DNA of 64,000 bases, taken from NCBI GenBank assembly GCA_021647835.1, contig JAKITY010000001.1:8718-72717 (forward strand), in the 5' to 3' direction. The position numbers and the translations under genes are program-made. Positions 36,538 to 55,524 of the stretch are shown piece by piece. Positions within the stretch are counted from its first letter, which is position 1. Each line of letters begins with the position of its first letter. Source of the DNA: Flavobacteriaceae bacterium (GTDB lineage: Bacteria; Bacteroidota; Bacteroidia; Flavobacteriales; Flavobacteriaceae). Under the pieces are notes generated by a model. That model saw only the letters and a program-made list of their open reading frames with translations, did not search any database and was not told the DNA's origin.

Positions 36538-38268
36538 TTATTCTATTATTTCTTTTACACTCCCACAATTTAGCATTTTATCTCCAAAATAAGGGTTTTT
36601 TATTTCTTTTTCTAAACTCAACCAATATGCGCCTTTATTATCATTAGCCATCGGACAAAATTGATTATAAATTTCTTGATTTACTCCAAATAATTGAATA
36701 GCACTTGTAAGATGTGAAGATAAATGTATAAAATGATCTCTTTGCTTTTCTATTTCTGTTACATCAGCAATTGAATTTGCTGAAGATTTAATCTCTTTTT
36801 CAACTGTCATCCAATGAGTATGTGCTGCATTATCTTTAAGTAATTTCATATCAACTTTTCCTAAACTTGAAATAATTACACTTGCAGCATCTTTGGCTAA
36901 ATCAGGATTATCATTAACTAAGGCGTTTTTAAGTTTAATATAATCATCAAAAACCGTTTTTAATTGATTTTGAAATTTTGAATCTACCGAAATCCTACTA
37001 ACAATTTCCTTTTCAACAATATCTTTAGAACTTTTATTTTGGTTCATCATAGATCTTTTACCTTGTAACTGCGCTGTAGCATCTATTGTAAATGTGCCGT
37101 TTACAACAATTTCTTCATCACCTTCTAATCCTTTTATTACTTCGTAGTTTTCTCCCATTTTAGAACCTAGCGTTACTTCACGCATTTCAAAAATTGGTTC
37201 GTCAGGTGTTGATTTTACATAAACTACTGAACGTTTTCCTGTCCACAAAACTGCAGATGCAGGAATCAATATTGATTGTTTGTCAACAATAGAAGGTGCT
37301 ATTCTCTGTACTTTTCCTTCAACAAACATTCCTGGCTTAAAAAGACCCTTTCTATTATTTAAAACTACTCTTAATTTTATTGTTCGTGTTGCATTGTCCA
37401 AAATTGGATCTATAAATGATACTTTTGATTTAAACTCTTTCGCAGGATAAGCATTTGTAGTCACTACAACTTCTTGCCCCTTTTTAAACTGTGATATTTG
37501 ATTTTCATACACATCAAAATTTGCCCAAACTGTATTTAAATTTGATATTTTCAATAATGGCGCTCCTTCCATTACATGATTCCCTTCTTCAACCATTTTC
37601 ATACTTACAACTCCAGATACATTCGCATAAATTGGAAAATTAGCAATTGGCTTTCCTGAAATCTCGATACTGTTAATTTGCTTCTCAGAAAGTTTCCATA
37701 AATTTAATTTTCCTCTAACTGCCTTATAAAGAGCAGGCTGAGATTCTTTTAACGATGCTGCTGTTAATAGTTCTTGCTGTGCTGCAAATAATTCTGGAGA
37801 ATAAATACGTGCTAACAATTTCCCTCTATTTACTTTTTCTCCAACAGAACTAACATATAACCTCTCTATTCTACCTCCAAAATGTGCAGTTTGAACGGAT
37901 GTTGCATCTTCATTCTCAACAATTTTTCCCGACAATTTTATAGCATTACTACCTATTTGATTGTTTGAATCATTAATGGTAATTGTTTGGATATTTGCCA
38001 ATGCCATTGCGTTTTCTGACAATTTAAATTGATCTTCCTCAAGACCATCTGCACCAACCTCAGCAGGAATTAAATCCATCCCACAAATAGGACAATCGCC
38101 TGCTTCAGGCTGCATAATTTGTGGATGCATTGAACATGTCCACATTTGATTGACTTTTTCTTCTGAGTGATTCTGAGTAGAATCATTAATAGATGAATTT
38201 GCAAAAAACATTTTCCCTAAAAATAGTCCTACAACTATTAATCCAATATAAATTAGATATTTCTTCAT
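36538..38268 (-). CDS. CusB-like RND periplasmic adaptor with heavy-metal-binding and DUF3347 domains
   Basis: [25 protein letters not shown] and C-terminal FCPMA..NPYFG..MLNCG. Confidence 0.93.
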   Translation of the reverse strand: MKKYLIYIGLIVVGLFLGKMFFANSSINDSTQNHSEEKVNQMWTCSMHPQIMQPEAGDCPICGMDLIPAEVGADGLEEDQFKLSENAMALANIQTITINDSNNQIGSNAIKLSGKIVENEDATSVQTAHFGGRIERLYVSSVGEKVNRGKLLARIYSPELFAAQQELLTAASLKESQPALYKAVRGKLNLWKLSEKQINSIEISGKPIANFPIYANVSGVVSMKMVEEGNHVMEGAPLLKISNLNTVWANFDVYENQISQFKKGQEVVVTTNAYPAKEFKSKVSFIDPILDNATRTIKLRVVLNNRKGLFKPGMFVEGKVQRIAPSIVDKQSILIPASAVLWTGKRSVVYVKSTPDEPIFEMREVTLGSKMGENYEVIKGLEGDEEIVVNGTFTIDATAQLQGKRSMMNQNKSSKDIVEKEIVSRISVDSKFQNQLKTVFDDYIKLKNALVNDNPDLAKDAASVIISSLGKVDMKLLKDNAAHTHWMTVEKEIKSSANSIADVTEIEKQRDHFIHLSSHLTSAIQLFGVNQEIYNQFCPMANDNKGAYWLSLEKEIKNPYFGDKMLNCGSVKEIIE

Positions 38269-47574: not shown

Positions 47575-48147
47575 TTAAATTGTATCTAATTTTTTTCTTT
47601 TTCCTGTATTTTTAAACTGCGTAGGTGTTATTCCTGTTACTTTTTTGAATTGTCTTGATAAATGTTGTGGACTGCTATAATTAAGTTCATAAGAGATTTG
47701 ACTTAAGGTTAGTTCTCCATAAAGCAGTAGTTCTTTTGCACGTTCAATTTTTTGTTTTATCGTGAAGTGTTCTATTGTTTCTTCTTCTATTTCTGAAAAC
47801 ACTTTGCTTAAATGAGAATAATCTACGCTTAAATTTATAGTTAGAAATTCTGAAAAATTTTGAGTTGATGGTTTTTTTCTTTGATGATGTATAATATCTA
47901 TAATTAAAGATTTTACTTGGCTTGCTATTTTTGCATCACGAGTTTCAACCAATTCAAACCCTTCTTTTTTTAGCATCTTTTTGAGTTTTCTTTTGTTTCC
48001 CTCTGAAATCCCTTGCTGAAATTGTATTGTTCCTAATTGAACATCTATAAAGTCAATATTATTTTTTAACAGTTCTTCTTTAATCACTTTTATACAGCGA
48101 TTGCAAACCATATTTTTAACTATTATTTTAGTGTTTTTTAGTTTCAC
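47575..48147 (-). CDS. AraC-family regulator with N-terminal HMA-like CxxC domain
   Basis: KNMVCNRC and a C-terminal AraC HTH (YSSPQHLSRQFKKVTGITP). Confidence 0.92.
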   Translation of the reverse strand: MKLKNTKIIVKNMVCNRCIKVIKEELLKNNIDFIDVQLGTIQFQQGISEGNKRKLKKMLKKEGFELVETRDAKIASQVKSLIIDIIHHQRKKPSTQNFSEFLTINLSVDYSHLSKVFSEIEEETIEHFTIKQKIERAKELLLYGELTLSQISYELNYSSPQHLSRQFKKVTGITPTQFKNTGKRKKLDTI

Positions 48148-51001: not shown

Positions 51002-54000
51002 TTAATTTTTTAGTTTTAATTCTTTCATCCAACTAAATAAAACTGGCACTACAAATAGCGTTATTAATGCAACAAGCATTCCTCCAAAACTTGGAATTGC
51101 CATTGGAATCATAATATCACTTCCTCTTCCTGTTGATGTTAGTATTGGCAACAATGCCAAAATTGTAGTTGCTGTTGTCATCAAGCAAGGTCTTATTCGT
51201 TTTTCTCCTGCTTCAATTACCGATTTTCTTATTTCTTCTTTTGTTTCTGGTTTATTTCTATCGAATATTTGCGTAAGATACGTTGCCATTACTACGCCAT
51301 CGTCTGTTGCAATTCCGAATAGTGCTATAAATCCTACCCAAACGGCGACACTTAAATTTATTGTTTTTATCTGAAATAACTCTCGAAAATCTATTCCAAA
51401 AGTAGTAAAGTTCAAGAACCAATCAGTACTATATAAACCAATCATAATAAATCCTCCTGCAAAAGCAACTAAAATTCCTGTAAACACTAAAAGTGATGTT
51501 GCTATGGATTTAAACTGAAAATACAATATCAATAAAATAATTACCAATGCTAAAGGCACTACAATAGAGAGTGTTTTTTCGGCACGTAATTGATTTTCGT
51601 ACGTTCCAGTAAATTTATAGCTTATTCCTTTTGGAACAATTAATTCGCCTCTATCTATTTGTCCTTGAATTGCTTCTTGAGCAGTTTCAACTACATTTAC
51701 TTCAGCAAAACCATCAACCTTATCAAACAATACATAACCAATTAAAAAAGTATCTTCACTTTTAATTACTTGTGGCCCTTGTTCGTATCTAATTGTTACC
51801 AATTCTTTTAACGGAATTGGATTTCCTTTTTTGGTTGGCACATAAATATTTCCCAAGTCCGTTGGGCTTGTACGCAACTCTCTTGGGTAACGCACACGAA
51901 CACCATAACGCTCTCGTCCCTCTACGGTTTGCGTTAACATTTTGCCTCCAATGGCAACTTCTAAAATAGATTGTACATCTTGTATTGCCAAGCCATAACG
52001 TGCTATTTTTTCTCTATCAATGTCTATCAACATATACGGTTTCCCCACAATTCTATCAGCAAAAACAGCTTCTTTTTTAACGCCTTCAACTTGTTTTAAA
52101 ATACCTTCTAGTTTTACACCAAAGGCTTCAATTTCCGCCAAGTTTTGACCTTTTACTTTAATTCCCATTGGCGCACGCATTCCTGTTTGAAGCATTACCA
52201 ATCGTGTTTCTATAGGTTGTAATTTTGGTGCTGATGTTACGCCTGGCAATTTTGTAACTTTTACGATTTCTTTCCAAATATCATCTGTAGATTTTATATG
52301 TTTTCGCCAATTTCTATAATAATCTCCATCATCATCAATAATTAGATTTTTGGTTGCTATTTTTGTTCCTAAAGTTATATGTCTTCCGAATTTCGTTTCA
52401 AACAGTCCATCTTCATTTACTTTAAATTTTAAACGTTCTCTGTCTTTGTCTTGCTTATATTCTGGCTTATAAATAATTACATTTTCATACATAGATAAAG
52501 GAGCAGGATCGAGCGCGCTTTCTGCTCTACCTGCTTTTCCAACTACGGTTTGTATCTCGTTGATTGTAGCAACTGCAATATCTAATTGCTGTAAAACGCG
52601 TTTATTTTCTTCAAGACCAGAATGTGGCATTGAGGTTGGCATCAGCAAAAAAGAACCTTCATTTAATGATGGCATAAACTCTTTTCCTGTATTGCTCCAA
52701 ATATTAAATCCTAAAAAAACAATTAATGTTGGAAGACTTAAAAATAAAAGTTTGTTGTCTAAAGCCCAAGTTAAAATACGCACATAATATTTTTGAAATA
52801 AAGTAAAAACGCCTAATAATCCGAAACAAATAATAGAGACAAAAATAATATTCGAAATAATTGAATAATCTAAACCTAATGGTCGCCAATAAATCCCTAA
52901 CAGAATGACAATTGTAATTGCCGAAAGTAATACGTTTACGGTATTTGCCATTTTTTCTGACAATACTTCTCTACTTTTCAAAATACTTGAAATTGCAAAT
53001 CCAATAAGAATAAGCCCGATATAATGTCCTTTAATTATTGCAAAAACTCCTAGTAATGCTAAAGTAATATTTAATATAAATCCAAATTTCTTTTTAGGTG
53101 ATTTCCAACCAAATAGCCAAGAAGCAAAAGGCGGAATTAAAAATAATGCAACTATTACAGAAGCTACTAATGCCATTGTTTTTGTGGCTGCTAGTGGTCT
53201 AAATAATTTCCCTTCAGAACCTATCATTGTAAATACTGGTACAAAACTGATAATGGTTGTAGAAACTGCTGTTAATATTGCGCCCGAAACTTCTTCGGTT
53301 GCAGTATAAACAATCGAATTCATAGAGCGTTTGACCTTGTCTAATTTACTTTCATCAATGTGTCTAATAATATTTTCGGTAAGAATAACACCAATATCGA
53401 CCATTGTACCAATGGCAATGGCAATACCAGAAAGTGCTACAATATTGGCATCTACGCCAAAGAGTTTCATTCCTATGAAAACCATTAGCACTGCAACTGG
53501 CAATAATCCTGATATTAAAGAGGAAACTTTGAGATTGAAAACCATCATAATAATGACCAAAATGGTAATTAATATTTGTAAGGTTATTGCTTCATTTAGT
53601 GTTTCTAGTGTTTCTTCAATAAGTTCTGTTCTATCATAAAATGGAATGATGGTTAATTGTGATGTTCTTCCATCTTTTAAAACTTTTGAAGGCAATCCTG
53701 TACTTATTTCGGCTATTTGTTTTTTAACATTGGTAATTACTTCCATTGGATTTGACCCATAACGCGCCACAACAACACCACCAACAACTTCAGCACCTTC
53801 TTTATCTAATATACCTCTTCGTTGTGCTGGTCCTAAAGCAACTTTGGCAACATCTTTCAGTAAAATTGGCGTGAAATTTTCGGAGGAAACTACTGCATTT
53901 TCTAAGTCTTCAACCGATTTTATATAGCCTAAACCACGAACTAAGTATTCTACTTGGTTTATTTCTATTGTTTTTGCACCAATATCTTTATTTGATTTCC

Positions 54001-54685
54001 GAACAGCATTTACAACTTGCTGTAAGGTTATATTGTATTCTTTTAGTATATCTGGATTTATATCAACTTGATATTCTTGCACATAACCTCCAATACTCGC
54101 TACTTCCGAAACACCACTTGCCGATGACAATGCATATTTTACATAATAATCTTGTATGCTACGCAACTCATGTAAGTCCCAACCACCAGTTACATTACCT
54201 TCTTCATCTCTACCTTCTAGCGTGTACCAAAATATTTGTCCTAATCCTGTAGCATCTGGACCCAAACTTGGTTGGACACCTTGAGGCAACAATCCTTTTG
54301 GTAGTGAATTTAGTTTTTCAAGGATGCGGCTTCGACTCCAATAAAATTCTACATCTTCTTCAAGAATGATATAGATTGATGAAAATCCAAATGCCGAAGA
54401 ACTACGGATTGTTTTAACTCCTGGAATTCCTAATAATGAAGTTGTTAACGGATAGGTTATTTGGTCTTCTATGTCTTGTGGCGAACGACCGTCCCATTTT
54501 GTGAAAACTATTTGCTGGTTTTCGCCAATATCTGGAATGGCATCTACAGCCACAGGATTTCTTGGAATACCAATATTATCCCAGTTAAATGGCGCCGTTG
54601 AAATTCCTAACCCTATAAAAAGGGCTAATAATAAAACTGCTACGAGTTTGTTTTCTATAAGAAATTTGATGCTTTTATTTAGCAT
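51002..54685 (-). CDS. cusA: CusA/CzcA heavy-metal RND permease
   Basis: DAIPDIGENQQIV, EDQITYPL, LGPDATGLG, AIAIGTMVD and RIRPCLMT. Confidence 0.95.
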   Translation of the reverse strand: MLNKSIKFLIENKLVAVLLLALFIGLGISTAPFNWDNIGIPRNPVAVDAIPDIGENQQIVFTKWDGRSPQDIEDQITYPLTTSLLGIPGVKTIRSSSAFGFSSIYIILEEDVEFYWSRSRILEKLNSLPKGLLPQGVQPSLGPDATGLGQIFWYTLEGRDEEGNVTGGWDLHELRSIQDYYVKYALSSASGVSEVASIGGYVQEYQVDINPDILKEYNITLQQVVNAVRKSNKDIGAKTIEINQVEYLVRGLGYIKSVEDLENAVVSSENFTPILLKDVAKVALGPAQRRGILDKEGAEVVGGVVVARYGSNPMEVITNVKKQIAEISTGLPSKVLKDGRTSQLTIIPFYDRTELIEETLETLNEAITLQILITILVIIMMVFNLKVSSLISGLLPVAVLMVFIGMKLFGVDANIVALSGIAIAIGTMVDIGVILTENIIRHIDESKLDKVKRSMNSIVYTATEEVSGAILTAVSTTIISFVPVFTMIGSEGKLFRPLAATKTMALVASVIVALFLIPPFASWLFGWKSPKKKFGFILNITLALLGVFAIIKGHYIGLILIGFAISSILKSREVLSEKMANTVNVLLSAITIVILLGIYWRPLGLDYSIISNIIFVSIICFGLLGVFTLFQKYYVRILTWALDNKLLFLSLPTLIVFLGFNIWSNTGKEFMPSLNEGSFLLMPTSMPHSGLEENKRVLQQLDIAVATINEIQTVVGKAGRAESALDPAPLSMYENVIIYKPEYKQDKDRERLKFKVNEDGLFETKFGRHITLGTKIATKNLIIDDDGDYYRNWRKHIKSTDDIWKEIVKVTKLPGVTSAPKLQPIETRLVMLQTGMRAPMGIKVKGQNLAEIEAFGVKLEGILKQVEGVKKEAVFADRIVGKPYMLIDIDREKIARYGLAIQDVQSILEVAIGGKMLTQTVEGRERYGVRVRYPRELRTSPTDLGNIYVPTKKGNPIPLKELVTIRYEQGPQVIKSEDTFLIGYVLFDKVDGFAEVNVVETAQEAIQGQIDRGELIVPKGISYKFTGTYENQLRAEKTLSIVVPLALVIILLILYFQFKSIATSLLVFTGILVAFAGGFIMIGLYSTDWFLNFTTFGIDFRELFQIKTINLSVAVWVGFIALFGIATDDGVVMATYLTQIFDRNKPETKEEIRKSVIEAGEKRIRPCLMTTATTILALLPILTSTGRGSDIMIPMAIPSFGGMLVALITLFVVPVLFSWMKELKLKN

Positions 54686-54694
54686 TGATTTTAA

Positions 54695-54791
54695 TTTTTA
54701 AACTTAGACATTAGTGTTGAGAAAACACCGAATACAGAAATTTATCCTAATGGAATGTATTCATCGGATAAAAGAGTCAATAGTTTAAAAA
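54695..54791 (-). promoter_or_regulatory. Structured intercistronic RNA between the HYC_CC_PP gene and cusA
   Basis: 10-bp outer stem 54782-54791/54695-54704, interleaved 7-bp helices 54766-72/54741-47 and 54756-62/54730-36, and hairpin 54714-54728. Confidence 0.6.
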
Positions 54792-55208
54792 TCAAATTAA
54801 ATAAGTCTCGTCAAGTTTATGTATATCCTTGACGACCAAAGGTGGAGAATAATCTCTATAAGAACTAATATCATTTTCTAAAACTTCAAAAAGAGAAATA
54901 TATGAGTGTATGTATGAAACAATGAAGGCTTGCTGCTCAAAACGAAGTGTCTCTAAAGCCGTTTTTAACTCATCTTGACCTTCAATTACTTCTTGTTTTT
55001 CAGTACAGCAGTTCTTTTTAGCAAGCGAACAATCTTTATCTGAGGTGTTTTTTTTCATCTCCATTCCACAACTTTTTGCAGCCCCAAAAATGGTTGCATC
55101 TACTAGTAAATCTCCGCAATAATGCTTATTTACAGTAAAAGACAATGTAGAGAATAATACTACAAAGGTTAGTGAAATTGCTGTTATTTTATGAAAAAAC
55201 TGCTTCAT
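54792..55208 (-). CDS. HYC_CC_PP family protein
   Basis: Hydrophobic N-terminus, HYC, CGM, C..CC, YSPPL and terminal YLI; TACATTTG promoter at 55217-55224(-). Confidence 0.88.
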   Translation of the reverse strand: MKQFFHKITAISLTFVVLFSTLSFTVNKHYCGDLLVDATIFGAAKSCGMEMKKNTSDKDCSLAKKNCCTEKQEVIEGQDELKTALETLRFEQQAFIVSYIHSYISLFEVLENDISSYRDYSPPLVVKDIHKLDETYLI

Positions 55209-55311
55209 TATTAATACAAATGTATAAAAAAATGTTATTACTCATCTAAAAATTATGTTAAATCAAGCAATGAATCATTTTTTTTTACAACTTATAACAA
55301 TAAAATAAATC

Positions 55312-55524
55312 ATGGCAAGTAAGAAAAAAATCAAGATTATATTAACTGGAAATTTTGACAATCCTCAAGATGCGTTTAACTTTTTTGATAAAAACAGTAA
55401 TGGAGCATTATCAAAAAAAAAAAATGTAACATTGCTTAAAGAAGCAGAAATTAGTGGTTATGATTTGATGACGATAATAAAGTTGATTGGAAAGAATTTA
55501 AAACAAGCAATTAGCGAGATGTAA
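55312..55524 (+). pseudogene. Degraded two-EF-hand protein
   Basis: First loop FDKNSNGALSK is in frame. Second loop DDDNKVDWKEFK is in another frame from 55467. A12 run at 55413-55424. Confidence 0.6.

Follow-up and report, generated by a model that had tools for sequence, protein, structure and literature searches.

The closest described systems are exported upstream ORFs that control the genes behind them. In CutF, the dwell time of the ribosome is tuned by a Cys motif that is exported and a Pro motif at the C-terminus, and this opens a stem that hides the ribosome-binding site (PMC9973294; 10.1101/2025.02.05.636593). The corresponding two motifs of CruR control Rho termination (PMC9426467). 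CutF, which is DUF2946, comes from the cutFOG operon of Rhodobacter capsulatus, and CruR (Bp2923) from Bordetella pertussis, where Rho-dependent termination is relieved or triggered at a C-terminal RAPP. In the MS2 coat and replicase genes, the classical form of coupling, long-range pairing couples translation, and the upstream ribosome must open the downstream initiation site.

Here we analysed a locus in a 64,000-nt stretch of Flavobacteriaceae DNA, which is called the window throughout. A sequence-only reading had proposed that the first gene of a copper efflux cluster encodes a metal-sensing leader protein, HYC_CC_PP, a Bacteroidota analogue of CutF and CruR that controls the cusA gene behind it through an RNA switch. 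Our main reading, to which we assign a probability of roughly 0.55, is that HYC_CC_PP is a cis-acting leader whose translation gates cusA through a helix, P1, formed between the end of the small gene and the region just before the cusA start. The genes and protein motifs concerned are the following (window positions):

55217..55224, minus strand: TAcaTTTG, the -7 box of a Bacteroidota-type promoter, ending 8 nt ahead of the HYC_CC_PP ATG (sequence read)
54792..55208, minus strand: HYC_CC_PP (DUF8199) ORF, 138 aa plus TGA stop (NF047658, full length)
Residues 1-26 of HYC_CC_PP: signal-anchor, judged by eye and from an AF2 helix at 2-21
55116-55124, minus strand: HYC motif, H29-Y30-C31 (alignments A2, A5)
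55062-55070, minus strand: CGM motif, C47-G48-M49 (alignments A2, A5)
55005-55010, minus strand: CC motif, C67-C68 (alignments A2, A5)
54840..54845, minus strand: Pro122-Pro123 codons (CCA CCT), 15 codons before the stop (A5)
51002..54685, minus strand: cusA/czcA-type heavy-metal RND permease, 1227 aa, AUG at 54685-54683 (TIGR00914)
47575-48147, minus strand: AraC-family regulator, 190 aa, with an HMA-like MVCNRC at its N-terminus

The features that had been ascribed to the small ORF, an export-like N-terminus, the HYC, CGM and CC ligands and a PP 15 residues from the end, are all read in the sequence. The ORF matches the whole of NCBIfam NF047658 (all 131 profile positions, with E 2e-33 and 115.7 bits where the cut-off is 28), and the Pfam domain DUF8199 (PF26622) is precomputed on all its homologues, with Atlas clusters that are 100% DUF8199. 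The motifs stand in the order of the family, a hydrophobic N-terminal segment, H-Y/F-C, C-C and P-P, and the N-terminus consists of a positively charged n-region (MKQFFHK) and, after it, a hydrophobic core of 17 residues. Across the 42 sequences of alignment A5, C31, C68 and P123 are invariant, and H29, C67 and P122 are at least 90% conserved. The prolines (S121-P122-P123) are followed by 15 residues, a spacing shared by 82 of 114 distinct close loci; among 40 distant loci, 25 have 15-16. The extreme C-terminus, F/Y-[L/R]-I-stop, is common to the family. The stop codon is TGA in 105 of 114 cusA-clade loci, compared with 8% of the long ORFs in the window's own genome, a preference to which both relatedness and the UGA:UCA pairing in P1 contribute. 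Conservation extends over the whole protein (80% amino acid identity in the close set). The predicted secondary structure comprises a transmembrane helix, a small ligand-bearing sheet and two more helices; the confidence of the AF2 model is low (pLDDT 62, pTM 0.27), and fold searches were therefore not justified. Of 401 Bacteroidota genomes sampled, 116 gave a match to NF047658 (E <= 0.001) and 106 exceeded the family cut-off, often with several copies per genome; neither HYC_CC_PP nor DUF8199 was named in any paper that we found.

At the protein level the likeness to CutF lies in the anatomy. Both are small (<150 aa) first genes of a copper operon, with an N-terminal export signal, a periplasm-exposed Cys motif and a Pro motif near the C-terminus. 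The window ORF has 138 aa, an N-terminal signal (by eye and from the AF2 helix) and a Cys/His motif, whereas its PP lies 16-17 residues from the C-terminus, just outside the 15 C-terminal residues in which the CutF-like rule places the Pro motif. Unlike CutF, the protein continues for 15 residues after PP and ends in F/Y-[LR]-I, and its ligands are HYC, CGM and CC instead of CxxxC. The two families have no detectable sequence relationship: the DUF2946 HMM (PF11162) found no match among close and distant HYC_CC_PP members at E <= 10 or <= 1, and nothing in ten genomes of the same family (f1) and nine f4 genomes; elsewhere in the phylum it gave sub-threshold matches only, at other loci.

The position of the small gene at the head of the operon is supported by comparative evidence. 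In 44 of 81 distinct loci, a TAnnTTTG box ends 8-9 nt before the leader ATG. In F. johnsoniae, transcription starts 4-5 nt past the -7 element, and leaders as short as 10 nt or less occur on just 13% of transcripts (PMC6847099). From the box 8 nt before the ATG, a 5' leader of about 3-4 nt can reasonably be predicted for HYC_CC_PP, in agreement with the earlier description of the gene as almost leaderless. Just upstream of the -7 box, 25-55 nt before the HYC_CC_PP ATG, three loci (L008, L013, L014) and most related ones carry two direct TGTTAAA repeats about 21 nt apart, in place of which the window has TTGTAAA and an inverted TTAACA at ~55235-55265. These repeats could be a site for the HMA-AraC regulator of the cluster, and together the regulator and the conserved pair suggest a separate, transcriptional layer of control.

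The pump gene was identified with TIGR00914 (E 3e-228, 760.2 bits, cut-off 701.45), and its N-terminus, MLNKSIKFLIENKLV (MLNKSIKF...), is conserved in related loci. With 1227 aa, CusA is about 180 aa longer than the 1051-position profile, which it matches in three stretches; with lengths of 1226-1275 aa, the CusA proteins of related loci share this insertion. The genes after cusA encode, in order, a TolC-like OEP, an HMA protein, a DUF3347 protein, a Haem_bd protein and the AraC regulator. The latter is a candidate metal-sensing transcription factor for the cluster, and similar HMA-AraC genes directly follow HYC_CC_PP paralogues in L271 and L277. We considered that the pump might have no adaptor and rejected this, as a CusB-type HlyD_D23 gene (E 2.8e-69) is present at ~37321-37947 on the minus strand. 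It is the only CusB-type adaptor near the pump and, on the strand of cusA, lies some 13 kb further downstream; the RND system is thus split within the island.

Between HYC_CC_PP and cusA there is a 106-nt spacer, which folds into a three-way junction (MFE -24.3 kcal/mol, z = -3.96) with an outer helix, P1, enclosing two inner hairpins, HP1 and HP2. Its elements, together with a tentative hairpin in the ORF, are:

54808..54835, minus strand: P0, a tentative hairpin in the coding sequence directly behind the PP codons (UCGUCAAG / CUUGACGA, 12-nt loop; RNAfold)
54776..54796, minus strand: P1 5' strand, made up of the last 2 nt of the Ile codon, the UGA stop (54794-54792), UUUUUAAACU and a distal GAC (MFE, A4, duplex test)
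54741..54772, minus strand: HP1 hairpin, with a UUUAUCC...GGAUAAA base, an extended stem and a variable tip (pair counts)
54730..54740, minus strand: J2/3 junction UUUCUGUAUUC, 11 nt (column conservation at least 90% in A4)
54713..54729, minus strand: HP2 hairpin, GGUGUU / AACACU (pair counts)
54690..54709, minus strand: P1 3' strand, GUC and then AGUUUAAAAAUUAAA at -19..-5 of the cusA AUG (MFE, duplex test, pair counts)

The perfect pairing on which the RNA switch had been founded is borne out: UUUUUAAACU (54791..54782) and AGUUUAAAAA (54704..54695, -19..-10 of the cusA ATG) are exact reverse complements of each other, and within P1 this 10-bp match lengthens to 15 bp, taking in the UGA stop. 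The P1 core thus pairs 54796..54782 with 54704..54690, and with the distal GAC/GUC extension the helix of the main clade reaches about 20 bp with small internal loops. J2/3 and the 5' arm of HP2 make up a nearly invariant YUGUAUUCGGUGUU in the main clade, and a divergent subgroup (L045, L268, L272) has another sequence at J2/3. At the position of P0, RNAfold found a hairpin in the window and, with other sequences, in divergent members, and third-codon positions are unusually conserved there; P0 is kept only as tentative because its covariation in the close set was not significant. The stop-start duplex of the window (-15.2 kcal/mol) is reached by 3.7% of 328 same-strand gene pairs of its own genome, which have a mean of -5.6. 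In the same genome, a few other gene pairs have stop-to-start duplexes of -25 to -30 kcal/mol (for example C6:6922-6996, C96:6242-6294, C18:3765-3841); there, GC-rich hairpins fill short spacers and are probably terminators or REP-like elements. A search of Rfam release 15 over 54500-55400 returned noise only (E 0.96-9.3, far below gathering scores).

The conservation of this structure was followed in Flavobacteriaceae genomes, where searches guided by the protein first yielded 52 loci and later a further 80, out of at least 588. In 96 distinct loci cusA comes directly after HYC_CC_PP, and most of the spacers measure 105-111 nt. The covariation check of these spacers supports the stems: in 68 distinct Flavobacteriaceae loci, 93.3% of the cells of P1, HP1 and HP2 are paired, compared with 36-42% in slid controls, in an alignment that was fitted to a covariance model and somewhat favours the structure for that reason. 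Compensatory changes occur at 16 pairs, and none of 500 shuffles reaches the observed values. The close set is phylogenetically narrow, so that sequence counts overstate the number of independent events. In HP1, 7 of 11 pairs show compensatory changes (94.8% of cells paired), and the hairpin is formed by an entirely different sequence (AGCCC/GGGCU) in L046 and the three divergent loci L045, L268 and L272. HP2, the small hairpin GGUGUU/AACAC(U) of the sequence-only reading, is likewise conserved, with compensatory changes at 4 of 5 pairs and 97% of cells paired.

An alignment-free calculation, in which 27 nt around the stop were paired with 35 nt before the start, gave a mean duplex energy of -15.2 kcal/mol and a mean z of -5.3 for the 96 distinct loci. 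The spacer is 83% identical between loci, while third codon positions of the flanking genes are 64-70% and upstream non-coding DNA is 44% identical, which argues that the spacer is under purifying selection. A covariance model built from 26 spacers has exactly one match per locus, always directly after HYC_CC_PP, and in whole-genome searches it gave one match in four of five genomes, each adjoining an HYC_CC_PP gene. The conserved RNA motif measures about 127 nt and has no counterpart in Rfam. In seven loci from several genera the spacer is 270-324 nt long, owing to an AT-rich, MITE-like insertion of 163-215 nt with terminal inverted repeats inside the HP2 loop; the insertion point corresponds to ~54718-54724 of the window, and P1 is intact in these loci (-17 to -18.5 kcal/mol).

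Two interleaved 7-bp helices had also been proposed inside the outer stem, as a pseudoknot or a mutually exclusive pair. One of them, UUUAUCC/GGAUAAA, is the conserved base of HP1. The other, GAAUACA/UGUAUUC, is present in the window but is not conserved: across the 68 loci, 66.0% of its cells are paired, no more than in shuffles (mean 66.3%), and it shows no covariation. GAAUACA is the variable tip of HP1, and only the 3' arm of the helix lies in the near-invariant YUGUAUUCGGUGUU. The pseudoknot or switch is therefore unsupported.

Several other readings of spacer elements were tried and rejected. An internal promoter on the 3' side of HP1 (TAAATTTC / TAATTTG) does not keep the invariant -7 positions, and the segment covaries as an RNA stem. 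For an intrinsic terminator, the U-tract is absent after HP1, HP2 and P1, as read in the sequence. The window has a mini-ORF in HP1 (ATG AAT ACA TTC CAT TAG), the ATG of which is lost where the stem covaries. The AUG in AAUGUCUAA, conserved inside the P1 3' strand (window 54709-54701) and 27-28 nt upstream of the cusA AUG, is in frame as an alternative cusA start in only a few loci (L040, L213, L225, L271). A genome-wide scan for the 15-mer TGTATTCGGTGTTKT gave, among the matches listed, mostly chance ones in unrelated phyla.

A helix joining the leader's stop to the start region of the gene behind it recurs across the HYC_CC_PP family. In seven loci with unrelated spacer sequence, the helix is kept with other bases, and in many members it has 12-14 bp. 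Flavobacterium-type members, which end in ...APPL(F/Y)KLYxQYIFYA, precede TonB-dependent receptors (Plug domain) instead of cusA, and these loci have a stop-start helix of their own (CUGAUUUUAAUGUU / AACAUUAAAAUCA-N5-AUG) with compensatory variants, around spacer interiors that differ from the cusA type. Among 40 distant members, 15 of the 25 with 40-150-nt spacers show a duplex of -10 kcal/mol or better; about 40% of the distant members examined have no clear stop-start helix, and it is absent from L271, L277 and L279, in which HYC_CC_PP stands before HMA-AraC or HMA-MauE genes.

The RNA extends the comparison with the described systems. As in CutF, an intergenic helix hides the initiation region of the next gene, in this case P1 over -5..-19 of cusA, which covaries, and the leader's ribosome would have to open it. 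In contrast to the CutF stem, the helix encloses a 75-nt insert of two hairpins, pairs the stop codon itself and shields an A/U-rich translation initiation region that has no Shine-Dalgarno site. With CruR, the locus shares an exported Cys-motif upstream ORF with a Pro-containing arrest motif at the head of a metal operon, and the Flavobacterium-type members are likewise upstream of a TonB-dependent receptor; unlike CruR, HYC_CC_PP has no RAPP, and its spacer is structured and C-poor, with a conserved stop-start helix. Unlike in coupling of the MS2 type, the stop-codon region of a small, dedicated, exported ORF supplies the 5' strand here, and the family conserves the whole arrangement as a module of its own. 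The proposal of a Bacteroidota analogue of CutF and CruR therefore stands for the anatomy, the stop-start helix and the gene context, and fails for homology, since the DUF2946 HMM has no match.

Bacteroidia ribosomes work without Shine-Dalgarno pairing, and in Flavobacterium it is secondary structure in the initiation region, about -20 to +20, that tunes initiation (PMC6847099). As that region needs to be unstructured and has no such pairing to rely on, P1 over -5..-19 would block initiation at cusA. We propose that HYC_CC_PP is the translated leader of a copper/silver efflux operon, in which P1 would hold cusA silent for as long as no leader-translating ribosome arrives at the stop and opens up the 5' strand; with UGA in its A site, such a ribosome would cover the 5' strand and would have to open P1. 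Translation of the pump then probably requires that a ribosome complete the small gene. We regard such structure-enforced translational coupling of HYC_CC_PP to cusA as likely. The geometry agrees with the earlier suggestion that a ribosome at the stop would melt the outer stem and one paused at PP would not: with the PP codons at 54845..54840 and P1 from 54796 on, the front of a ribosome halted on the prolines would remain about 30 nt away from P1, and P0 would be the one helix that it opens. With a pause there the gate would stay shut, the opposite of CutF, where stalling opens it.

As to the metal, an exported or membrane-anchored N-terminus would place the His/Cys/Met motifs in the periplasm, and the C-terminal module (PP, about 15 residues, F/Y-[L/R]-I-stop) would sit in or near the ribosome tunnel. 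Periplasmic metal would most likely change the frequency or duration of ribosome stays on the stop codon, and translation of cusA would in this way depend on metal, as happens with CutF and CruR. HYC_CC_PP resembles these two in its anatomy, and by that analogy we propose metal dependence via the nascent chain tentatively, at somewhat less than even odds. A second possibility is raised by the conserved F/Y-[L/R]-I-stop ending and the constant spacing between PP and stop codon, namely that a regulated arrest takes place at the stop codon, holding P1 open as in CutF, and not at the PP codons. Against the cis-acting leader as a whole speak the lack of a detectable relationship to DUF2946, the family members that have no stop-start helix, the PP just outside the 15-residue window of CutF, from which a ribosome cannot reach P1, the conservation of the entire protein, which also fits a stable functional product, and the HMA-AraC regulator (47575-48147), which could provide transcriptional control by metal.

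The last two points are shared by the explanation in which HYC_CC_PP is a stable, membrane-anchored periplasmic metal-binding protein, such as a CusF-like chaperone or a transporter accessory, and P1 merely couples co-expression, with no sensing by the nascent chain. Not the motifs alone but the whole protein is conserved, a transmembrane helix, a ligand-bearing small sheet and two further helices are predicted, and a regulator is on hand for transcription. We nevertheless consider this rather unlikely. The same family and helix occur before both efflux pumps and TonB-dependent receptors, two gene contexts in which a regulatory role is easier to explain than that of a subunit, and plain coupling needs neither a 106-nt structured spacer nor a fixed PP-to-stop distance nor a conserved C-terminus; the AF2 model of the supposed stable protein is, in addition, poor.

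The elaborate spacer could instead mean that the three-way junction is itself a sensor, riboswitch-like or protein-binding, in which a ligand at YUGUAUUCGGUGUU stabilises or opens P1 independently of leader translation or besides it. P1 with its two hairpins and near-invariant junction is under purifying selection and occludes the downstream initiation region as translational riboswitches do; having no Rfam match, it would be a new class. Since the junction differs in L045, L268 and L272 and in other spacer types that keep P1, the TonB-receptor-type spacers have different interiors, and several loci tolerate the 163-215-nt mobile-element insertion in the HP2 loop, we find a sensor of this kind improbable. 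Long stems flanking structured inserts, comparable to the ~20-bp P1 of the main clade with its small internal loops, also occur in phage T7 and rRNA processing. P1 might by this likeness be an RNase III-type processing site, cleavage at which separates the leader from the cusA mRNA and sets their relative stability or translatability; yet the helix has only 12-14 bp in many family members, and processing does not need a constant register on the stop codon and the start region, which makes this explanation very improbable.

The cis-acting leader could also be combined with a responsive junction. Bacteria that do without Shine-Dalgarno sites might possess a two-input gate of a kind so far undescribed in them, in which a termination-stage arrest peptide (PP, 15 residues, F/Y-[LR]-I-UGA) reads periplasmic metal with its exported Cys/His/Met domain and keeps the stop-start helix open, while the invariant part of the three-way junction binds a metal ion, a metabolite or a protein to set the stability of P1, and which would serve efflux (cusA) and uptake (TonB-dependent receptor) operons across Bacteroidota. 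We offer this gate as a speculation with a small chance of being right.

CutF-like genes upstream of RND pumps in Bacteroidota are already described by Öztürk et al. (2023), who list such genes before ACR_tran, OEP and TonB-like genes and find many of them in this phylum; what is new here is a defined RNA motif, a family-wide stop-start helix in two gene contexts, a C-terminal module and the rejection of the pseudoknot. HYC_CC_PP/DUF8199, a family with no assigned function, thereby gains a concrete candidate role, and the findings bear on translational coupling and control between genes in a phylum that ignores the Shine-Dalgarno sequence. If the metal sensing is true, the principle of CutF and CruR would reach an unrelated protein family and a second phylum, and would apply to metal import as well as export.
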